A stretch of DNA of 64,000 bases from Heterodontus francisci (lineage: Eukaryota): the NCBI RefSeq assembly GCF_036365525.1, contig NC_090387.1:76507300-76571299 (forward strand). The letters run 5' to 3'. Every line of letters begins with the position of its first letter. Positions within the stretch are counted from its first letter, which is position 1. Made by a program: the position numbers and the translations under genes. Positions 10,001 to 39,440 of the stretch are shown here, one piece after another. A model generated the notes under the pieces. The model did not search any database. It was given only the letters and a program-made list of their open reading frames with translations, and was not told where the DNA came from.

Positions 10001-11925
10001 TTCTGAAGTTCTTCTGGTTTTGAAAATATCTTTGAAATATTTACACTGAATATTGCAACATGGATGGATTAAATATTTATCTCGCACTATCTTAATGCCT
10101 TGAAAATGGCTTGAGTGCTTAGCAAGAGCCACGTGATGAGTTGGAATATGGGGATGCTAGGATCATTGTACCAGTAAGAAGTGCTAGAACGTTACCTGTG
10201 GCAAATGCTGGGTACAGGTTTTAGAAGTGATGTCACTTGGATTGCTGTGGGCATGTATAATTCATATTGGGTCTGTGCTGCATGCAATTATCCAGTAATG
10301 AAGATGCCTTCCAAAGCTAGTCTGTGCCTGTAGCGAGCCATATAAACAGTCAAATGGCAAAGTGTGAATGGGTCTGCCACTGCTGAATGATCAGAAAATG
10401 AGCTTGTATTGCCTAAGTAGTGCAAAGCACTTGGCTTAAATGGGTTGTCCCTGGCATACCACGATGCTATCACTGGTCTCTCGCAGTAACTTTGGCAAGC
10501 CATGAGATGTGATAAATGGCTCCTTACACTCTGTGGTACCAAAATGCTTGATAGCCTTGTGCTTGCACTACATTGCACCAACCTACAGACCATTAGAATG
10601 AATACTCTACCAGCTGACAAATTGATGTAAATGTGTTGTCCTATTCATATAGTAAAGTTGACCATTTTCTTCCAAATGCGTTCTTGGGCAGAAGTGCAAA
10701 TATTTGTTGAAAAATCTGTGATTAAACCCCTCTACTCTTCATGGGGGCGTTAAAACCTGGGCATAGACTTGTGACTGTTCTCCTTCTAAACAGTTGTGAT
10801 CCTGAAAGTCGCTTTCTAGACATAGTCGTGCTAACCTAGAAATAAACTGATTTACAATAGTGGAACCATGTGTCTACCTTCGAATTGTGTCCTGTTCTGT
10901 TAGTATGCTTTATCTATCTTCAGCTTATGCTTAAACTTTGCTAGGTTGTACCAGCTGGCACATTTTGCCAAACCACAATGAAAACTGCACAATCTTGGAC
11001 CACAGCCAGAGTCCGTGTTAGCTGTGCTGTCTCTTTGACCCTGTTGGATATTCAGCTGTGGCTTCTGTGAGATAAGTTGCTTCTGTGTTTCAATAGTTGC
11101 TGTTCTGTACTGTACTCAACTGACTACCTTGTGTAGTAAAGGTTCGAAAAAATGTCTCTATTGACTTTTCATACTATATTGCTTTTAACTGCATTTAAAA
11201 TGGTATATTTTAGTCATATTTCTCTCTTAAGTGAATTTATTTGTGCGTGTTAAGCTTGCCTGGCCCTCTATTAAAACTGGGCTACTTCAAAATAGGATCT
11301 TAGAATAGTTTAAACAGTTCGGTGCATTTTGTGGGGTTATGGGTTGATTGGCTTGCCCCCTCCTCTCTCCTGTAACCGAAAAGACCACAATACAGAACGT
11401 ATTTACAGCGAATGATGTTATAATTTGTTAAACAATAGTAAATATTCATTTTTTTAAAGTTGGATGATTGGCACTTTCTTAGACTTCAAGGGACTCCTTA
11501 TGATTTGACCATGCAAGCTTAATTTTAAGAAGCATCACATATCTGCCGGCGCAATTTTCTGATGACCCTTGGTTGATATCAAGGTAAAAACATCGCACAT
11601 GTTTGAAATTCAGAACACGTGGACCGGAGTAGCTTTTCAACCGACCGCCGCGTAAATTTGGCTTTGCAAACCCTGCTCTCGGCTGGTTCTATAATGGACC
11701 GACGACCAATTCCACCAGCTTACCGCCTCATCATTGAGATTGAAAATTAACACTTCTCCTCTCAAAACACACACACACGAGATGCGTGTAATGTTCCAGA
11801 ACGTTACTCATTAGTCCAGTTGCAATAAATGAAAACAATGATAGAAGCACGTTTAATGGTGTATAATCGAATACCCTGGAACGACACCCAGAAATAGCCA
11901 AGTTTTTCGGGCTGTGTTTAGATTC

Positions 11926-12063
11926 TTAACTTCTCTCTTTCTTTATCACGTTTACTTCAGCATACACTGCGCTCTTGTCTTGTTTAGGTTTTGATGTTTT
12001 CTTGGAATCAGCAAGCTGCAGAGCCGCGTAAGTCAGCTGGTTCTCACCGCTTCTTTGTTTAGT
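11926..12063 (-). CDS. Gene B exon 8 (terminal): tyrosine module 3 with canonical ITIM (TKQRSGENQLTYAALQLADSKKTSKPKQDKSAVYAEVNVIKKERS*)
   Basis: Acceptor acttttacag|, 138 nt ending in TAA. LTYAAL fits I/V/L/SxYxxL/V and AVYAEV is ITIM-like. Candidate ATTAAA at 11852-11857. Total CDS 1143 nt = 380 aa. Confidence 0.88.
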   Translation of the reverse strand, partial: TKQRSGENQLTYAALQLADSKKTSKPKQDKSAVYAEVNVIKKERS

Positions 12064-12497
12064 CTGTAAAAGTAATATTTCGTATCACCCGTTAATCTGT
12101 TGCTCACTCATTGCTTGAGGTAATTTAGGTTTGAAAAAGACTGTAGCGAAATTTCTTCTCATCAATTACCAACTTCAGGTTGTAACCGGATTTTGTTTTG
12201 GTTTGTTTCTCCAGTTTCTCCCCTCTCTGCAAACGATTCACGTTGCGTTCCAATTCCACACCCTCCCCTAAATCTTACTGGTATTCCGCTTTAACCTTCA
12301 TATAAAATCAGTTCTGCTGAAAGGTCACAGACCTGAAACGTTAACTTTGTTTCTCTCTCCATAGATGCTGCCTAACCTACTGAGTACTTCCAGCACTTTC
12401 TGGGTTTTTTTCAGATTTCCAGCATCCGCAGTATTCTGCTTCTATAAAATTAGGTCTCCTGCTCATGCAGCCCATTCAAGGGAGCAGATTAATACTT

Positions 12498-12747
12498 CAA
12501 AGAACAAAGAACAAAGAACAGTACAGCACAAGAACAGGCCATTCGGCCCTCCAAGCCTGCGATGATCTTGATGCCTGCCTAAACTAAAACCTTCTGCACT
12601 TCCGGGGCCCATATCCCTCTATTCCCTTCCTATTCATGTATTTGTCTAGATGTCTCTTAAACGTCGCTATCGTATCTGCTCCCATGGCAGCAAGTTCCAG
12701 GCACTCACCACCCTCTGTGTAAAAAAGCTTGCCTCGCACATCCCCTC
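12498..12747 (-). mobile_element. CR1 3' fragment in the last intron of gene B
   Basis: Near-identical to 5360-5613. Confidence 0.8.
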
Positions 12748-12988
12748 AATTAAAATATAAAAATGAATTTCATACTGGTCTCTTAAGGGTATTTGGAATT
12801 ATGATATTGTAAAGCACTGTTTTTGAGGCCCTATTGTTTGAGCCTCGAAGGTCAAATATGATGAACCTTGTCTGAGATCAGCTGACACAACGCAGTGGTA
12901 GATGAAACCTGGGATCTTTGCATTTCCTGCAGCCCGGTGTCGTAACACTTAACATTGCTGATATATCAATGAATGATCTGAGCTGTAC

Positions 12989-13081
12989 CTGAGCATACAC
13001 CGTACGCTGTTCCTTCTGTCGGTGTTTCGCATTGTTCCTGGTCCTGGTTTCGACAGTGGTGTAAGGAAATTCTTGTTCCGT
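12989..13081 (-). CDS. Gene B exon 7: tyrosine module 2 (TEQEFPYTTVETRTRNNAKHRQKEQRTVYAQ)
   Basis: Acceptor tattttacag|, donor CAG|gtacag, 93 nt, phase 0-0. Same two-Tyr layout as exons 6 and 8. Confidence 0.8.
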
Positions 13082-13428
13082 CTGTAAAATAGATATTTGC
13101 CAGTCTTACCAGGTGAGTTTCTTATTTTGTAATTTGTAGTCGTTATTACAGTCAAACTCGAAAATGAAGTGGAGCTAATTTTGATTGACTGTCGTGTAAA
13201 ACAAGTGGATAGAATCCGCAACCCGTTTTACATTTCTCATGATTTCTATTTCCAACCAAGTCAGCGGGAGAGATGCCGACTCGCCAGCACTCGTTATCTA
13301 CTGTCCCATAAAGTCAACACTACCTCGGTAAATGCTGTATAGGTTGTTAGAGTTGACTCTGTTATCACAGAGTGATGATTTTATGTAGAAATGGTTTGGA
13401 TATCATTCGCGCCAATCGCTCGCCCTAC

Positions 13429-13539
13429 CTGGGGATAGACGGTGTGCTCTATCTCATGTCTACGTTTGGGGGGTCCTTTGTCATCTCTCAAGTTTAGAGT
13501 AGCGTAGGCGGTAAGTTGTTCACTTGGTGCTTGTCTAAC
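13429..13539 (-). CDS. Gene B exon 6: tyrosine module 1 (VRQAPSEQLTAYATLNLRDDKGPPKRRHEIEHTVYPQ)
   Basis: Acceptor tatttttacag|, donor CAG|gtaggg, 111 nt, phase 0-0. Contains TAYATL and TVYPQ. Confidence 0.85.
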
Positions 13540-14299
13540 CTGTAAAAATAAGATATGGAATACTGATAGTTAGAGTCTAATACAGCAGCCAGCTACCATC
13601 AATTGGAACTGAGTCTGAAAGTGTAAATATGGAGACAGTAACCGATAAAATTAGGGCTTAATTGCATTCTGCCCACTCACAATCATTTTATTCAATATCT
13701 CTCCCATAGGGTGAGGAATAATGTTCTAAATATGAAATCCAGTGCACTCAAATCTTTTTAATCCTCAGTCAGCCCATCTTATTGGAAGACTTTCCAGGCA
13801 GAGGCTGAGATTGTCCTCGTTCCACTTCCAGCCACATCTATCCAGAGCTGGAAATCAGCCGCTGAGACATTCAGCCCCTCCCCGCAACTGCCTAACCCAG
13901 GGTTTCAGGGTGCAGACCAATTAGGTGTTGGTAGCAATGTCCCAGCTAACACACCAGCGGTGGGGACGGCACCTGGGACCCTGGAATCTAAAAGCAAAAT
14001 ACTGCGGTTGCTGGAAATGTGAAATAAAACAGAAAATGCTGGAAATACTCAGCAGGCCTGGCAGCATCTGAAGAGAGAGAAGCAGAGTTAACTTTTCAGG
14101 TCTGTGACCTCTCATGGAAGGTCACAGGTCTGAAACGTTCCCTCTGTAGCTCTCACCTTCCTAATCTATCTGGTTGTGCAGGACAACGTCTCAATTAAGC
14201 AACTGGGCATCTCCGATTTTTAAAATAATTTGAATTACGAAAGAGAAATTTGTCAGATGCATATGTTACAGTAAATACAAATATTTATCTTGGCCTTAA

Positions 14300-14897
14300 A
14301 ATCAAGACATGTAGTACAAAAACAAGAAATTTATGCAAAACCTTTCTAAATCACTGGTCAGGCCTCAACTGAAACATTGTGTTCAATTCTGGGCACCACA
14401 CTGTGGGAAAGATGCCAAGGCCTTCGAGAGGGTGAAAAGGAGATTTACTGAAACGGTATCAGGAATGAACGACTTCAGTTATGTTGGGTAGACTAGAGAA
14501 TCTACGATTGCCCTCCTTATAACAGAGAGCGTGAAGGGGATATTTAATGAAGGTGTTCAAAATTATGAGAGGTTTTGAGAGAATAAATAAGGAGAAACTG
14601 ATTTCACTGGTCGTTGTGTCGGTAGCCAGGGACAGAGATTTAAAATAATTGGCAAAATAATCAGGGAAGATGAGGATATTTTTAATGCAGCCTGCTGTTG
14701 TGATCTGGAATGCACTGCCTGAAAGGGTGGTGGAAGCAGATTCAATAGTAACTTTCAAAAAGGATATATACTTGAAATCAAAAATAATGTGGGGCTATTT
14801 ATAAAGAGTCGGTGAGTGGGGCTAATTGGATAGTTATTTCAAAGAGCCAGCAGAGGCAGCATGGCCTCCTTCCTTGCTGTAGGATTCTATGATTCTA
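14300..14897 (+). mobile_element. Degenerate CR1 3' fragment
   Basis: Remnants of the RPQL..CVQFW and WNALP coding regions, with a gattctatgattcta tail. Confidence 0.7.
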
Positions 14898-14988
14898 TAA
14901 AATTTTATAAATATCTTCTAGACTGAATGTAAAAATTCTTGTTATTCCCCCGCCTACTTTTGGAACATGAAGAACATTGTCACCCTAC

Positions 14989-15032
14989 CTGCTCTTCAGC
15001 CTGACCCGCTTCCGCAGAGTCTTTCTTGCTGC
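14989..15032 (-). CDS. Gene B exon 5: cytoplasmic linker (GSKKDSAEAGQAEEQ)
   Basis: Acceptor ctctttccctcag|, donor CAG|gtaggg, 44 nt, phase 1->0. Bridges the TM exon to the phase-0 tyrosine exons. Confidence 0.82.
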
Positions 15033-15647
15033 CTGAGGGAAAGAGAAGTCCACATTGAATAGCTTAATCAGTATATAAGCAAAACAAGTTCATGTTTTTG
15101 ATGCTAAACACAGATGCTGTGTAAAGTAAGGAGACTTGAAGGTACAGATCGCTCTGAAGATGCTCAGCAGTACCAGCCATTACAGTGCAGCATGCTGGGA
15201 ATTCCCTTCTCATACCCTACAGTGTCGCTGCATCCAATGGTGTGGACCTCGTCTTTGTGCGATAGTGAAAAACAGGGTTGTCCATCCTTTCCGCATGATG
15301 GGGGGGTGGGGGGGGGGGGGTTGCTGGGGGTGGCAGGGGCGGTGGCACAATACAATTTTGTCTTATATAGGGGGCTGGTGAGACAATTTTGGAAAGATAA
15401 AGGCATTAAAAATACATCTTACTATTAATCAAAATAGCAACAAAGGTGCATTGTTGTGAGGAAGCTTTAAATATTCAACTACCAAACACAAAAAGCTCTG
15501 TGCTATCAACTTCATTCTTTAAAGATGCAGTAAGGTGCTCTTTATTCTTCAACAATGAATGAGGATTCACCTGCCCTTTTTGTATTGTAAAATTACAACT
15601 GGGCCTTTGAAAATAAAAGTATTCGGCAGAATAAGAAATATTCTTAC

Positions 15648-15752
15648 CATCTGATGCCTTTAATTTGAGTCTGGTCAAAATTATTATTAATAGTAAAATT
15701 GCCAGTATGCCCCCCGCACATCCAAAAATCAGCAGAAATGTATTATCAGTAC
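15648..15752 (-). CDS. Gene B exon 4: uncharged transmembrane segment
   Basis: Acceptor cctgcag|, donor G|gtaag, 105 nt, phase 1-1. (G)TDNTFLLIFGCAGGILAILLLIIILTRLKLKASD: hydrophobic span followed by a basic stop-transfer. Confidence 0.92.
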
Positions 15753-16753
15753 CTGCAGGATCAACAGATATTTGAAATAAGAAACTGTAGAAGACAGCGA
15801 GATATATACACAGAGTATCGTGGGTCAGGCAATGGAGGACGAGTTGCAAAGGTGTCTCTTGGGATAACGGCCTCTACCGTCAGTGGGGCTGGACCCCTTT
15901 TTTATTATAATGTGCACCAAACAATGACGATTGTAATCCAGTAATGGAATTTATGGAGAAAATAAATCCTATTCCATAAAGGCACAGGAAGCTTCTCTCT
16001 GCACGTGAGGGTTGTTTATTAAGAGTAAAGGGAGTTACACTTTTTTACCTAGCAGTGCGACACCAGACTGATCCGCAACGGCTGCAAAGGTGGCAAAGTC
16101 TTCCACTCTTCAGCGCTGACATTCCTCAGCAGTGTTACTGCTGTTACTTTTAGTAGGTAACAAGCAACTTGCATTTATGCAGCGTCTTTAACACAGTAAA
16201 ACGTCAAAAGGCATTTCACAAAGAATCACCAAACAGAATTTTAAACCGAGCCACATAAAGGGATATTAGGAAAGATGGAGGTAGACTTCAAGGAGCGTCT
16301 TAAAGGAGAGGGACATAGAGAGCCGGAGTGGTCGGGAATTTTAACTTTTAGGATGTAGACAACTGAAGGCACGATGCGCAGAGAATAGATGAACATAATG
16401 ATATTTCCATATATCCAATTTAAATTCACGGGATGTAAAGTGACTCTGAGAGAACCGATCCATTTTATGTGTAGTTTCATTTTATTTGGCAAGAATTTGA
16501 CGAGGAATAATCTTTCAAGTTTTGAACAGTTGTCCATCAACCTCCTGTTTCAGATCGCTTCAGGGAAATACTTTCCTTCCTTCACCTACTTGAATATTTT
16601 ATTTCGTTCCCATAAGTGTGGCATTGAGAGTAAATACAGTCCACATTCACTCCGTATCCTCGTGTTTGAACAGTGTTCCAGCTACATGTCTAATCAGTAA
16701 ATACAGATTGAAGTAGTCACCACGCTCCCCGCTGGATATGTTTTCAAACGTAC

Positions 16754-17047
16754 CTCGATTGACGGTGTAGCTGACGCTAGCAGGTACCAGAAGAGAGATA
16801 TGAGATGCCAGACAGGTGTAAACAACTTTCTTCGGGGCAGGTTGTGCTTCTTCCAAAAAACTGGAAACTTCATAAAGTTCTTCCGTGCTCTTGTTTTTCA
16901 CAGTTTCTATTCCGCTCAGAATTTCGACACCATCCCTTAACCAGGAGATTTCTAAATGCTCTGGATAAAAGGCAACCGTTTTACACTCGAGTTTCAGAGA
17001 AGTCGCTGAAGTTTCAACAGCAACGATTTTCAGGGGGGTCGGGGGAA
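16754..17047 (-). CDS. Gene B exon 3: C1-set Ig domain
   Basis: Acceptor ttctctgttatag|, donor G|gtacg, 294 nt, phase 1-1. (V)PPTPLKIVAVETSATSLKLECKTVAFYPEHLEISWLRDG...LYEVSSFL...YTCLASHISL...; C1 motifs LxC, FYP, W and YxCxxxH. Confidence 0.93.
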
Positions 17048-17176
17048 CTATAACAGAGAAAAAAAGTTTTTTTTTAGTTTAAAGGAACACATTCTCATTT
17101 TCTACCCTCCTTTATGCTATTACACCCCTACGGTTACAATGGTTATCGGTGCTGTCGTTCTTTAAGCTTTATGCTT

Positions 17177-17432
17177 GCAGCACAGTGGCGCCATGGTTAG
17201 CACCACAGCCTCAGCGACCCGGGTTCAATTCCGGGTCCTGCCTGTGTGACGTTTGCAAGTTCTCCCTGTGGCCGCGTGGGTTTTCGCCAGGTGCTCCGGT
17301 TTCCTCCCACAGCCAAAAACTTGCAGGTTGATAGATAAATTGGCTCTAGTATGGGAAGGTGGAGATGGGATTAATGTAAGATTAGTATTGATGGTGTGCC
17401 GAAGGGCCTGTTTCACTGCTGTATCTCTAAAT
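17177..17432 (+). mobile_element. tRNA-derived V-SINE (HE1-like)
   Basis: tRNA-like head (gggttcaattcc B box), V-domain core ctccggtttcctcccacagccaaa and a CR1-like tail. Other copies at 21765-22095 (-) and 46580-46810 (+). Confidence 0.75.
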
Positions 17433-19130
17433 AAAAAAATAGATTGTTGTAAGGCACACAGCAAAATGACGAAATGTATTGCAAACGATGCACAAAGAGG
17501 TTGCAATTAGGGAAGCAGATGCCACTGCTCTGAATGGAAGTATCAGATCCTGGCGCGGGATTGGGGTTAGCAGTAATGATCCCAAATGAGATTCCTGTCC
17601 GAATATATCGGAGTGAGCGCAACCAGTTCACACGAACAGCGGAATCGTCTCTCCTTATACTGTAAGAATCATTGCTGTACTAAATATTTTGTGTGTTTAT
17701 TTCAAAACTGATCGTTTTTCGAATAGTTCATATATTTGAAAACATATTTTATTTCAGTATTATTCAGAAGATGATGTGTGTAATCAAAACATCTCTGATG
17801 TCGATATTGAATCCAGACAGGATGTTTTTATATGTGTAGATTAGAATTCGTGCATTCCAACATTTCAGCGTCTGTGGTGGAGATTTCAGATCGTGCAGCT
17901 TTCATCTAGGGAACTTTCTCTAGAGGGGGAACCGAGGGCTGAAACATTTTTCATCTAATTTAATAATTAGGGACATTATTAACTTGCAAAATTATATTAG
18001 CCTTTATTCCCAACAAAGGCTCAGAATTTCTCTTTTACCATGGATCTGCTTTAGAGATAATATGCAATGCAGTAGAATTTCAGTGGAGGAGGGCAGTGTT
18101 CTTTTGATCTCTTGCCGTAATTTCTGTCTGGGGTTTGGGGCGTGTAAGTGGAAATCATGAAGTACAAATACCGGAGCCCAGGCTTTTACTCAAATGTTCG
18201 GTGATATCCTTCCAGTATTTGACGGGTTGACAGCGTTTAAAAGAAAGTCCAATTGACGTAAGACAGGGGTTCAAACACGGGCATTGGGTAGCTTCACTGT
18301 TCTTCAAGCTGGGCTGGAATCCAGCATTGAGGGCAGGATCAACACCTCCCTTCTCACTAGGTCGTAGGTTTCATTTATGAAAAGAGTTTGGTAGCTCAAG
18401 CAAGTTATCAATGGACACAAGTGCACAGCATAAACTGTGGACAGAGGAACAGGAGTAGGCCATTCATTTAGATTATGATTGATTCTTACACTAACTCCAT
18501 TTTCCCGACTTAATTCCTTTCCTTTGATACCCATACCTAACAAAAATCTGTCCAACTCAAATATCGGACAATTTGGTATAGAAAGTATGAGGTGGCAATT
18601 TTGAGCAATGGAAATTTATCTGGTGCGAGAAATATTTACGGCGGTGGTAGGAAAGTGTTCACCTGAGTTTGTGACCTTGTCGGGGCGGATTAGATGGTCT
18701 TTAATGTTGTATAAAAGACTTGACCTAGGAGGTGTTAAAATTGTTCCCATTGTCGCACTTTGGCACCGTTATTTTGGTGAGAAGGAACCTGGCCTACTTA
18801 TACTATTGATTAATTTCAAACTAAGATTTAAACATTTTTTTCACTCTCTTGGCTTAATAACAATTGTACCTGCACCAAAAGCACTCATTGAGTGAAAACA
18901 CTTTGGAATGTTCTGCGATGTTGTGAGGACAATGAGCGGGTGAAATTGGTCTTAGACAGTAGCGCAAAACGGACGATAGCGAATCGGCAGTCGTTGTACA
19001 CCGGGGTCAATGGAAAAGAAAATCCCGAGATGTGTAAAACGAATTTGTTGTCAGCAAGTTTTCTTCCAGTGAAATTACATATATTGCACACAGCTGAAAA
19101 AGCCCCACTCCCTGGTACAATGACACTTAC

Positions 19131-19433
19131 CGTACACAGTAAGCTGGGAACCACTTCCATCTCCAATAGATTCTTGATGTTTTACTTTACAGTAATACAT
19201 TCCGGAGTCTGCAACACTCGCATTCAGAACATCAAATGAACTACTTCCCTTTTTTACATTAAATCGCTTTCTGCTGTCTGGTTTCAGAAACGATCCCTCG
19301 CCGCGTTTCCACCAATAAACATCTGGAATATCTTGAAATAGGGGAAATGTACAGAACATGGAAGCATTCGCACCTCTGGCAACCTTCAAGAATTTAGGAA
19401 ACTGTTCCACTTTGTTCGAAGTTACTTCAGCGG
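19131..19433 (-). CDS. Gene B exon 2: V-set Ig domain with germline-joined J-like G strand
   Basis: Acceptor ttttctaatag|, donor G|gtaag, 303 nt, phase 1-1. AEVTSNKVEQFPKFLKVARGANASMFCTFPLFQDIPDVYWWKRGEGSFLKPDSRKRFNVKKGSSSFDVLNASVADSGMYYCKVKHQESIGDGSGSQLTVY. Has the B-strand Cys, C-strand Trp, DSGxYYC and GxGSxLxV. Confidence 0.95.
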
Positions 19434-19622
19434 CTATTAGAAAATAAACAGTTTCATACATCAGATAAAGAAAATAACAGAAATAAAACTCAAGAACCAT
19501 TAAAAACACCAACAAGCGAATTGGAGAAACACATCTAATTTTGCAATTCATAACAATTGTACAATCTTCTAAAATATGATTGAAGTTATTCTGAAAGGGC
19601 AGCATATACTAACTAAAGGTAC

Positions 19623-19677
19623 CTGGCCAAACCATGCCCAAAAGAGCCATGTACTGAACTGAAGCTCTCACCGACAT
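19623..19677 (-). CDS. Gene B exon 1: signal peptide (MSVRASVQYMALLGMVWP)
   Basis: ATG at 19677, 18 codons + 1 nt, donor CCAG|gtacct. Phase 1 matches the V exon about 190 nt downstream. Confidence 0.85.
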
Positions 19678-20274
19678 GTTGCAACTTGCAATTGGTGTAA
19701 ATGAGAATGGCAACCTGAATGATGTGGGCAAGAAATGGATTTCATAGATAAATATATGAAACATGTGACCATGACATGAGGTATCACGTGACTAAAACGG
19801 CGTATTAAGTCGGGTTATATATACTTCTGCGTGGGAGTCTGGGAAGTAGGAGGTCACCTGCAGACTGAAAAGTTTCCATCGAAAAAGCATTGCTTTTACA
19901 GCCGCTCCCGGCACTTCGATCCGACAATCTTCTATTCCAATACCTGTCTTAGATCCTCTTCTCAATCCTGAATATAACGACTCGGGCTGCAAGCGTGGGC
20001 AGTCCGCCCACACTTTATCTCAAGGAATCTTCTTTATGCAGGAGCATGGACAGCGAGAGTAGAAAATATTTAGTCCCGGGAGCTCAGGTGCGATCATGAT
20101 CTCTCCCAACCTCCATGAACCCGGACTTCTAGCAGAAGTCACTGGAATAGCAATTCGAATTAATAACCCTGCTCATCGCTCTTTCTCCACTCCAAAGCTC
20201 GTGAGGCCTACTTTAGCCTCATCCAAGACAGAGATGAAATGTTGGACCGATACCCACGTGGTTCAATGTTACAG

Positions 20275-36356: not shown

Positions 36357-36710
36357 CTTGGGAGGAAAAGAAAATTATTTTAAGTTTGAAACATGAATTA
36401 GTATTATATTTCTGTAGTCTATAATTTCGAACACGAGTTCAGGACAGGTCCCTTTACCATCGTATTTCATTGAAACATTTTTAATTTCTTCCTTTCCACA
36501 TATTATGAAGCTAGAAATTACATGGAATCCTTAACGAAGAAAGGAAAGTGTAGTATTTGGTAGAATCCTGGAGCCATGGAGCGTAGAAGGAGGCCACTGA
36601 TCCAACTTGCCTTTGTTAGATCTTTGAAAGAACTATGCAATTAGTCCCCCTCCCCTGCTCTTTCTCCATAGCCCTGCAAACATTTCCTTTCCAAGTACCT
36701 ATCCAGATTC

Positions 36711-38182
36711 CGACAAGTTTCCATGAGATTGGGAAATAGCGAATGCAACTCCTTTATTCAATAAGGGAGGGAGACAGAAAGCAGGAAACTACAGGCCAGT
36801 TAGCTTAGTATCCCTCTTAGGGAAAATGTTAGAAGCTATTATTAAAGACGTTTTAGCAGTGCACTTAGAAAAATTCAATGAAATCAGGCAGAGTCAACAT
36901 GGTTTTCTGAATAGGAAATCATGTTTAACCAATTTATTGGAGTTGTTTGAAGAAGTAACATGTGCTGTGCATAAAGGAGAACCGGTGGATGTATTGTACT
37001 TGGATTTCCAGAAGGCATTTGATAAGGTACCACATCAAAGATTATTGCAGAAAATGAAAGTTCATGGTGTAGGGGGTAACATATTGGCATGGATAGAACA
37101 TTAGCTGGCTAACAGGAAACAGAGTGGGCATAAATGGGTCATTTTCTGGTTGGCAAGATGGAAAGAGTGGTGTGCCACAGAGATCAGTGCTGGGGCCTGA
37201 AATTTTGCAATTTACATAAAAGACTTGGGGATGAAGGGACAAAAGGTATAGTTGCTAAATTTGTTGATGACACCAAGATAGGTAGGAAAGTAAGTTGTGA
37301 AGCCGACATCAGGAGGCTACAAATGGATATAGTTAGGTTAAGTGAGTGGACAAAGATCTGGCAAATAGTGTATAATGTGGGAAAATGCGAAATTGCCCAT
37401 TTTGGCAGGAAGAATAAAAAAATAAGCATATTATCTAAATGGTGAGAGATTGCAGAGCTCTGAGATGCAGAGGGATCTAAGTGCCCAAGTGCATGAATTG
37501 CAAAAGGTTAGCATGCAGGTTCAACAAGTCATTAGGAAAGCAAATAGAAAGTTATTGTTTATTGCGAGCAAATTGAATACAAACATAGGAGGTTATGCTT
37601 CACGTATACAGGGCATTGGTGAGACCACATCTAGAGTACTGTGTGCAGTATAGATCTCCTTATTTAAGGAATGATTTAAATGTGTTGGAAGCAGTTCGGA
37701 GAAGGTTTAATTGGACTAATACCTGGAATGGGTGGGTTGTCTCATGAGGAAAGGTTGGACAGGCTAGGCTTGTATCCACTGGAGTTTAGAAGAGTAAGAG
37801 GCGACTTGATTGAAACATATAGCATGCTGAGGGGTTTTGACAGGATCGGTGTGGAAAGGATGTTTCCCCTTGAGGAAGAATCCAGAACTAGGAGTCACTG
37901 TTTATAAAATTAAGGGCTCAACATTTAAGACAAAGATGAGGAGAATTTCTTTCTCTGAGGGTCATGAACCCTTCCTCAAAAGGCAGTGGAAGCAGCGTCT
38001 TTAAATATTTTTAAGGCAGAGGTAGATAGGTTCTTGTTAAGTATGTGGGTGAAATGTTATCGAGGGTGTGGAGTCGAGGTTACAATCAGATCAGCCATGA
38101 TCTTTTTGAATGGCGGAGCAGGCTCGAGGGGCCGAGTGGCCTACTCCTGCTCCTAATTCGTATGTTAGTTTGTATGTTCGTA
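36711..38182 (+). mobile_element. CR1 in gene A intron 2 (same insertion as 684-2146)
   Basis: ORFs 36826-37907 contain YLDFQKAFDKVPH and KFVDDTK. Junctions match those in copy C. Confidence 0.88.
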
Positions 38183-39125
38183 CAATTCCCCTTGAAAATT
38201 ACTATTGAAACTGCTTGATTCCAGTTAGTGAGTTCCAGATCACAACAGCCTGCCGTGTAAAATAATTTCCCCTCCCCTCCCCTCCTATTCTTTTGCCAAT
38301 TATCTTAAATCGGTGCCTCTGGTTACTAAATCGTCGTTATTTGGTTATAGAGTCATGTGATTTTACAACGCAGGAATCCATTTGGCTCAGTGTGCCCGTG
38401 TCATCTCTGAAAGAACAATCCAGTTAGTCTCTTTGACATATTTGTGCTCCCTTCAGCCCTTCCCGTCAGAACAGTTAAGCTTCTTATTTCCAGTGGCCGT
38501 TTTGTGCAGGGACATGGTAAATATATTCGCAAAGGTTTCTTGTGGTTTTGTTACTAGTGAAATCATAAAGTTGTTCCAAAACACTTACCATCTCGAAAAC
38601 AAAGTTTCATTCTAATTCTAACAAAGTTGGAGTGACCAGTCTAACGTTTCTCCACAGTAGAAATTCCTTGTTTGCTATTTCCAGTCAAATTGTAGGAGTT
38701 TTCTTTTAAAGAAATATTCCACCCAGAAACCAGCCCATAATTAGCAAACATTGGGGCAGGTTTTGACTTTGTCCGACAATGGAAACCGGGCGAGAATCGT
38801 CGGCAGTCCCATTGAAATTGGAAGCACCAGCTTACGATCAATTGTTCTACATTATCTACACATTGACACTGAAGGGGGAAGGTTTCCTCCCTTGCACTAT
38901 GTAAGGAAATTGTCCATTTAAAAAAAAACTTATGACGTTGCAGAAAATATACGCAGGAAATCTTCCCGTAAGTCAACAATCTCAGCTCTCCAGTCGCTTG
39001 ATGCTGATACTGGATACAAAAACCTGGGCCGGTGTCCCATTCCCGCACGCTTCTCTACCTCTTTGGTATTTTGCTAAATACCTATTGCACAACTGACACT
39101 TGTAACATCAGCACCAACAACTTAC

Positions 39126-39440
39126 CGGCCACAAGGAGCTCTGAGCCGGTTCCATTCCCAAACATTCCTCCCCGGCAGTACACGGAGCAGTAATAGCGGC
39201 CAGAATCTTTGAAGCTTACATTCAAGAGATGGATGGCGGCTCCTCCTTTTTTCAGAAGTTTGTATTGTCTGTTGCTCGCTTCTCCGTCGTTCAAGAACTC
39301 ATCATCACCATGTCGCCACCACTGAACCTTTACATCTGATTCCTCTTGAAAGACGGGGAATGTGCAGTAGAAGGTGATGTTTGCTCCTCTGAGCGCAACT
39401 TTGATTGGAGGGATTTGGCCGACTGTGGATTCCCCAACAA
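39126..39440 (-). CDS. Gene A exon 2: V-set Ig domain with germline-joined J-like segment (FGNGTGSELLV)
   Basis: Acceptor tctgatag|, donor G|gtaag, 315 nt, open. VGESTVGQIPPIKVALRGANITFYCTFPVFQEESDVKVQWWRHGDDEFLNDGEASNRQYKLLKKGGAAIHLLNVSFKDSGRYYCSVYCRGGMFGNGTGSELLVA. Roughly 40% identical by eye to the gene B V domain. Confidence 0.94.

Follow-up and report, generated by a model that had tools for sequence, protein, structure and literature searches.

The window analysed here, a 64,000-nucleotide stretch of the horn shark (Heterodontus francisci) genome, contains only genes of one receptor family and repeats. An eight-exon gene on the minus strand spans positions 19677 to 11926, and its product consists, in order, of a leader, a V-set domain, one C1-set domain, an uncharged transmembrane (TM) segment, a 44-nt linker and the segments encoded by exons 6, 7 and 8, which form the 3' end of the gene and carry the two-tyrosine tail modules (Table 1). 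The J-like end within exon 2 reads G-x-G-S-x-L-T-V. Exons 6, 7 and 8 are each preceded by TTTTACAG and all are in phase 0, GT follows exons 6 and 7, and the residues between the paired tyrosines number 22 in exon 6 and 21 in both exon 7 and exon 8; the acceptor octamer, phase, tyrosine spacing and exon lengths of 111 and 93 nt given by the initial annotation were all reproduced from the sequence. The eight exons joined by their coordinates give RefSeq XP_067906043.1 (P0010) exactly, and the same gene minus the TM exon translates to XP_067906044.1 (P0001) exactly. Used as a query, the V exon matched at 100% Heterodontus francisci RefSeq entries called ‘tyrosine-protein phosphatase non-receptor type substrate 1-like’; the gene is already annotated, by automatic naming only. 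A six-frame profile scan found no fourth module in the window (best other match, E 0.29).

Table 1 Features of the eight-exon gene in window coordinates.
Feature	Position	Strand	Evidence or remark
Exon 1 coding part, leader peptide	19623..19677	-	RNA joint 19433-19623 in run X1
Exon 2, V-set domain and J-like end in one exon	19131..19433	-	PF07686, E 6e-10
Exon 3, single C1-set domain	16754..17047	-	PF07654, E 3e-8; RNA
Exon 4, uncharged TM segment, 105 nt, phase 1-1	15648..15752	-	skipped in frame in 3/3 runs
Exon 5, cytoplasmic linker, 44 nt, without tyrosine	14989..15032	-	RNA
Exon 6, internal-type module, 111 nt, 37 aa	13429..13539	-	sequence, RNA
Exon 6 Tyr codons (slash, splice junction)	13506-13504 (TAYATL); 13437-13435 (TVYPQ/T)	-	sequence
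Exon 6 donor GTAGGG	13423..13428	-	GTA = codon otherwise Val at Y+3
Exon 7, middle module, 93 nt, 31 aa, likely hybrid	12989..13081	-	sequence, RNA, module scores
Exon 7 Tyr codons (slash, splice junction)	13063-13061 (FPYTTV); 12997-12995 (TVYAQ/T)	-	sequence
Exon 7 donor GTACAG	12983..12988	-	GTA again in Y+3 Val position
Exon 8 coding part, terminal module, 138 nt to stop, 45 aa	11926..12063	-	sequence, RNA
Exon 8 Tyr codons	12030-12028 (LTYAAL, ITIM); 11964-11962 (AVYAEV)	-	sequence
Exon 8 Val codon GTA at Y+3 of AVYAEV	11955-11953	-	sequence
3' untranslated region	11400..11925	-	run X1 contig; transcribed at least to 11400, edge of region examined

A neighbouring family gene lies at 39652-35020 on the minus strand, with V at 39441-39127 and C1 at 36357-36055, and matches P0061 at 100% and the gene with the tail modules at ~40%. 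Near 35800-35640 there is an open hydrophobic stretch in which an Arg precedes the hydrophobic run; P0061 skips this stretch, which may be a TM exon of the activating type. The short-tailed members P0006, P0019, P0044, P0075 and P0105 have a similar Arg, and such Arg-bearing, short-tailed members suggest that the family includes paired receptors. The segment 493-3326 matches 36521-39174 at 82-87% and contains, besides intron, just the 3' end of a V exon (3329-3275); to judge from this match, it is a duplicate of the neighbouring gene that has been truncated. The introns and the remainder of the window are filled with high-copy interspersed repeats and fragments of LINE-like reverse transcriptase (e.g. 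12309-12746 and 13989-14115).

The RNA evidence comprised three runs (X1, X2 and X3) from one sample, as contigs assembled on 11400-19900. The runs were taken to be spliced RNA because the contigs join across GT-AG introns, and regions without contig cover were excluded as evidence; assembled contigs drop rare forms, and contig depth is a poor measure of abundance. The exon 5-6 and exon 7-8 joints were found in all three runs and the exon 6-7 joint in two, confirming that exons 6 and 7 enter transcripts, as the initial annotation supposed. Exons 5-6-7-8 lie on a single unbranched contig in X1 and X3. The X2 contig breaks between exons 6 and 7, at 13067-13081 (depths 55.5 and 44.7), or ~14 nt into exon 7 judged by record lengths, and this break may stem from an allele, a paralogous copy or a minor splice variant. 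Joints that skip exon 6 or exon 7 are absent from the 15 joints listed of 20 in the three runs of the one sample, and none of the distinct RefSeq proteins for this gene lacks either exon (0/3 in horn shark, 0/2 in catshark); the missing skip joints are weak evidence of absence and not a refutation of exon 6/7 skipping. The TM exon, by comparison, is skipped in frame by a C1-to-exon-5 joint in all three runs, and the TM-to-exon-5 joint was found in two of them. The contig depths for TM skip vs inclusion were 111.6 vs 46.7, 32.1 vs 15.9 and 6.8 vs 0, and the higher depth of the skipping side is a hint about abundance. Models without the TM that keep the tail in frame are present in catshark (P0011), Narcine (P0022, vs P0180) and chimaera (P0169 and P0179), with the caveat that TM-less gene models of relatives can be wrong. 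A TM-less protein composed of leader, V, C1 and tail would be secreted, tyrosine tail included, and would be non-signalling. In short, the variant splicing in the RNA contigs takes out the membrane anchor and leaves the tail modules in place. On the minus strand at 16312-16779, an X1 contig (depth 16) continues past the C1 exon into the intron that follows, and its frame is open to a stop near 16647, giving a second possible soluble form; the paralogue model P0003 ends much like this.

For the relationship among the three tail exons, their local alignments were compared with those of shuffled sequences. At the protein level, the scores of exons 6/7, 6/8 and 7/8 were reached by 6, 1 and 190 of 5000 shuffles, and at the DNA level by 27, 3 and 35 of 2000 shuffles, respectively, and six control pairs using exon 5 or the TM exon were at chance (647-1606 of 2000). 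We also scored each exon against a module profile made of 61 modules from other family members, with eight close relatives left out, and as a null each exon was shuffled 2000 times with its tyrosine motif positions fixed, because any ITIM pair looks alike. Exons 6, 7 and 8 scored 31.6, 21.5 and 50.1 bits, and 0, 2 and 0 of the 2000 shuffles reached these scores. On the same profile, the two SIRP-alpha modules scored 25.9 and 17.3 bits (4/2000 and 28/2000 shuffles) and the unrelated Ig receptor tail P0162 scored 13.0 bits (15/2000); against these counts, horn shark exon 7 alone stands only moderately apart from generic tails. The catshark orthologue of exon 7 is closer to the other modules than the horn shark copy is (0 and 1 of 5000 shuffles). 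Between the acceptors of exons 6, 7 and 8, 10-12 of 17 upstream positions are the same (null 0.002-0.012); the remaining 18 acceptor pairs in the gene agree at 5-9 of 17. When the motif codons were masked, direct spacer identity was significant for exons 6/8 (p 0.008) and not for exons 6/7 (0.37) or 7/8 (0.48). No similarity was detected between the 150-nt upstream and downstream flanks of the modules or in intron-vs-intron BLAST, and the module repeat was detected neither by Tandem Repeats Finder nor by self-BLAST of the window; with all of these lacking a signal, a recent duplication was ruled out. By the shuffle tests, the module profile and the acceptor match, the mutual similarity of the modules proposed earlier is significant: exons 6, 7 and 8 are, as judged by these comparisons, homologous modules whose similarity is low, above chance and extends beyond the tyrosine motifs. 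One of the three masked spacer pairs being significant and the deeper flanks being unrelated, the duplication would be an old one.

Searching the 50% representatives for the family at E 0.001 yielded 911 proteins, of which the best 150 are considered here. From proteins of ≤520 residues we took 83 tails, with six duplicate isoforms and SIRP-alpha set aside; two tails of ≤10 residues and six near-duplicate or odd models were dropped, leaving 75 scored tails. Among these matches listed, 31 tails have no module, 19 have one, 18 have two and seven have three, which bears out the expectation that module number varies across paralogues and species. The named members come from chimaera, Heptranchias, horn shark, bamboo sharks, catsharks, Mustelus and sawfish, and among rays from electric ray, stingray and devil rays; coelacanth and paddlefish have more distant one- and two-module relatives. 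RefSeq names many family members after SIRP-alpha. In the horn shark paralogue P0002, exon 5 leads straight to the terminal exon and only the last module is present, and this model could be a skip isoform. Module number differs between genes (0-3), not demonstrably between isoforms. The models P0014, P0015 and P0002 (RefSeq XP_067905821-23) are isoforms that differ in the V and last exon, and P0014 is only 45% alike to this gene in the V domain and 64-83% alike in C1, TM and tail, a pattern that reflects an exchange of V exons or else a gene model in which tandem genes are merged. Another horn shark model, P0054 (XP_067906074.1), has four modules, two of them exactly repeated, which could be a very recent duplication or a model error, and it was excluded from the counts. 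Our literature search, which covered the main texts of mostly open-access papers, found no publication describing this chondrichthyan family.

Trees were built of the ectodomain and of the modules themselves. In V+C1 and C1 trees, which contain no SIRP rows, the gene belongs to an elasmobranch group of 16 rows (89/98 and 94/93), together with ray and Mustelus genes of two modules, a bamboo shark model of one and the catshark gene of three. In the module tree, which has 36 columns and unsettled support, exon 7 of horn shark clusters with that of catshark (98/81), exon 8 joins the last modules of the two-module ray and Mustelus genes (98/95), exon 6 lies among the first modules in a weakly supported group, and the chimaera three-module tails fall elsewhere; chimaera P0171 and P0172 have a separate doubling of the internal type. 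The 3' half of exon 7 scores as internal-type (30.9 vs 17.8 in horn shark and 33.5 vs 16.0 in catshark) and the start of catshark exon 7 as terminal-type (12.4 vs 1.7), which is the pattern expected from unequal crossover. The start of horn shark exon 7 is terminal-type by just 1.4 vs -3.8, the exon 6 starts score as terminal-type as well (5.9 vs 1.5), and the two introns flanking exon 7 have no detectable mutual similarity, so we regard the apparent hybrid signal as moderate. Exon 7 is likely a later addition shared with catshark, a hybrid made by unequal crossover of the exon 6 and exon 8 types, from which six residues have since been lost in horn shark. It is missing from the models of Mustelus (two modules) and Chiloscyllium (one) despite their nesting with catshark, which needs loss, paralogy or incomplete models. 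In chimaera, P0027, P0029 and P0173 have an internal TVYxQ/E-T module and a terminal module. The single triplication of one exon put forward in the initial annotation is therefore not supported, a two-module tail being already present in chimaera and exon 7 coming later; the data fit an old tail of one internal and one terminal module, to which the third, middle module would have been added later.

The second tyrosines of exons 6 and 7 differ from that of exon 8 at the splice junction. The second motif of exon 8 ends in GAA GTA (Glu-Val), and its counterpart in exons 6 and 7 is CAG GTA, of which GT is the donor. The next exon begins with Thr, and the spliced protein reads TVYPQT at exon 6 and TVYAQT at exon 7; that is, these motifs have Thr at Y+3 because the donor GT sits on the Y+3 Val codon. 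The motifs quoted in the initial annotation stop at Y+2 because the donor falls there, a point that it overlooked. The ITIM definition (S/I/V/L)xYxx(I/V/L), as given in PMC12151841, fits one of the six tail tyrosines, LTYAAL of exon 8, and the ITSM TxYxx(V/I) fits none of the six in the spliced protein and two only upon donor read-through. Thr is absent from the +3 preferences that the same paper gives for the two SHP-2 SH2 domains, and TAYATL of exon 6 fits its SHP-2 C-SH2 preference; a hydrophobic Y+3 is kept at four of the six tyrosines. Hence the earlier description of three equivalent SHP-1/2 modules is not supported in that form, since the second tyrosine of exons 6 and 7 carries Thr at +3, outside the ITIM, the ITSM and the SHP-2 preferences. 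The preference of SAP is TIYxxV/I/L/T in one review (PMC12084948) and the narrower TIYxxV/I in two older papers (PMC2213098 and PMC2212903); the wide form fits two of the six tyrosines, with Val for Ile at -1, and the narrow form fits none. Bamboo shark T cells express an sh2d1a-like gene (PMC11372145).

The Thr at Y+3 is shared within the family. Among the matches listed, it is found in 19 of 28 scorable internal modules vs 0 of 24 last modules, 23 of which have V/L/I at this position, with the exon boundary at Y+2 in relatives placed by protein alignment. A Fisher p of 1e-7 overstates the independence of these rows, which are related, and for this reason the Y+3 Thr of the internal modules is best read as one old state, not 19 events. 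The TVYxQT-type internal state is present in Callorhinchus, so the state would predate the chimaera-elasmobranch split, which occurred ~400 million years ago. The inner TVYxQT sites are likely modulatory and a poor SHP ligand. That they serve as docking sites for SAP/EAT-2-type adaptors is a tentative possibility that we hold more doubtful than not, the remaining probability being split between weak SHP sites and no function.

With moderate confidence, we favour the view that three homologous two-tyrosine modules are spliced together as the tail of a V-C1-TM receptor that is likely inhibitory, in which exon 8 is the predicted recruiter of SHP-1/SHP-2, exons 6 and 7 provide weaker or different sites, exon 7 is the later module, and variation arises by gene and by TM skipping. 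According to this explanation, the ancestor of the family would have had an internal and a terminal module, and exon 7 would have been added by unequal crossover in the lineage to horn shark and catshark. Ligand binding would lead a Src-family kinase to phosphorylate the tail, LTYAAL and AVYAEV would bind the paired SH2 domains of SHP-1/2, and weaker or different SH2 docking sites would come from exons 6 and 7. The output would be varied mainly between genes (0-3 modules in the gene models) and by skipping of the TM exon, which would give a secreted, non-signalling form, and not through loss of exon 6 or 7 from the transcript. A bolder version, which we think unlikely, holds that the cluster is the so far undescribed cartilaginous-fish root of the SIRP family and a paired-receptor array of exon-modular tails, that the donor on the Y+3 codon makes TVYxQT switch sites for SAP/EAT-2, each duplication adding one before a fixed SHP tandem, and that TM skipping yields an abundant soluble decoy.

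Two other readings are improbable in our judgement. One is that of the initial annotation, in which the tail holds three SHP-docking tandems and their number is tuned by regulated skipping of exons 6/7. Both exons are symmetric and in phase 0, and the part of this proposal that stands is that skipping would keep the frame. The four hydrophobic Y+3 residues and the fit of TAYATL to the C-SH2 preference of SHP-2 also speak for it, as do the models without some modules (P0002 and Mustelus P0165) and the fact that Thr is beta-branched like Val. Against it, the three runs of the one sample list no skip joint, the exon 5-8 contigs are unbranched in two of the three, and the RefSeq proteins of horn shark (0/3) and catshark (0/2) show no skipping. 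Moreover, skipping would remove sites and could never create a canonical motif, since Thr is the first residue of exon 7 as well as of exon 8. The other, to which we give a similarly poor chance, is that the internal modules have become a nearly neutral spacer in decay and exon 8 alone signals. The first tyrosines of both exons 6 and 7 are lost in the horn shark paralogue P0014 and that of exon 7 in the paralogue P0004, horn shark exon 7 is six residues shorter than that of catshark (31 vs 37 aa), and the Y+3 Thr may persist merely as the first residue of the terminal exon. The second tyrosine is missing in 4 of the 32 internal modules among the matches listed, but it is retained in the other 28, with Thr at -2 in 22 of 28, from chimaera to rays, and P0014 keeps both TVYxQT sites while its first tyrosines are gone. 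An idea that the second tyrosine of the inner modules is kept better than the first was dropped, the losses being about even. The weakest alternative, which we consider very improbable, makes exons 6/7 alternative last exons, with donor read-through restoring the ITSMs TVYPQV and TVYAQV followed by a stop after 15 or 36 further residues; the family gene model P0032 continues with Val at the donor position and the donor of exon 7, GTACAG, looks weak on inspection, but the contig depth in the exon 6-7 intron is 0.37, 0 and 0 vs 53, 21 and 2.6 in exon 6, and no read-through piece is among the contigs listed for the three runs.

Finally, we compared the gene with known receptor systems. SIRP-alpha (SHPS-1) shares the V and C1-set ectodomain, the uncharged TM and, with two-module members, a four-tyrosine tail. 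The family profile aligned end to end with the mammalian SIRP-alpha-like P0161 (probability 99.6, E 1.5e-23), with all four of its tyrosines in register with the two-module tail, so the resemblance to SIRP-alpha claimed initially is real, the tails being collinear tyrosine for tyrosine. The two differ in the number of tyrosines (six in this gene, four in SIRP-alpha) and in the second tyrosine of the inner module (TVYxQT here, TEYASI in SIRP-alpha), and the tail modules lie on separate exons here whereas all four tyrosines of SIRP-alpha lie in one exon. P0010 has one C1 domain and SIRP-alpha has two (P0161; PMC13503985), and the spliced C1-TM and C1-exon 5 contigs contain no second C1. A PDB profile search placed UrIg2 (9dmx, E 1.9e-34) on top, ahead of SIRP-alpha (2.7e-27), and ectodomain searches ranked UrIg2 and antibody chains level with or above SIRP-alpha, a comparison that draws on PMC12227049 and PMC10751288; PMC11599192 concerns V-only CD28 relatives. 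The gene resembles the SIRPs, and its orthology and membership in the family are unproven. UrIg and UrIg2, non-rearranging VJ-C1 molecules of elasmobranchs, share the single-exon VJ and C1, and differ in that nurse shark UrIg2 has nine C1 domains (PMC12227049) and this gene, a member of a multigene cluster, has one, so that the UrIg arrangement of VJ followed by several C1 domains is not found here; ITIMs go unmentioned in the main text of the UrIg2 paper (PMC12227049). The ITIM+ITSM tandem of PD-1/BTLA likewise has two tyrosines ~22 residues apart, and is read as one unit by SHP-2 (PMC12151841); this gene differs from it by its C1 domain and its three tandems, of which only LTYAAL fits the strict definitions. 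By analogy, the receptor might work like SIRP-alpha or PD-1. The ITSM or SAP/EAT-2 sites of the SLAM family share Thr at -2 and a hydrophobic -1 with the inner sites, and Thr at +3, as in these sites, is allowed in the SAP motif of PMC12084948, but the canonical ITSM requires V/I at +3 and the ectodomain is V-C1 here and V-C2 in the SLAM family. Identity with NITRs was ruled out, the second domain here being C1-set. NITRs occur in bony fish and have a V and an I-type second domain. Soluble PD-1 delta-exon-3 and soluble CTLA-4 are inhibitory receptors made soluble by skipping of the TM exon. The gene shares with them the in-frame loss of the TM exon with the leader kept, and differs in that the skip is found here in 3/3 runs and in catshark, electric ray and chimaera models.

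The gene is of an already known kind, an inhibitory-type receptor with an exon-modular tail, and if the inner tyrosines are inert, it would be an ordinary ITIM receptor, already annotated, in which an exon was duplicated long ago. The features worth following are the junction-made TVYxQT, the module number, which has changed repeatedly, and the frequent skipping of the TM exon. The tail illustrates how exon duplication can both multiply and alter signalling motifs, a residue that determines SH2 specificity being provided from across a splice junction. For the family as a whole, a large chondrichthyan V-C1 family with a tail collinear with that of SIRP-alpha would be a concrete candidate for the origin of the SIRPs.
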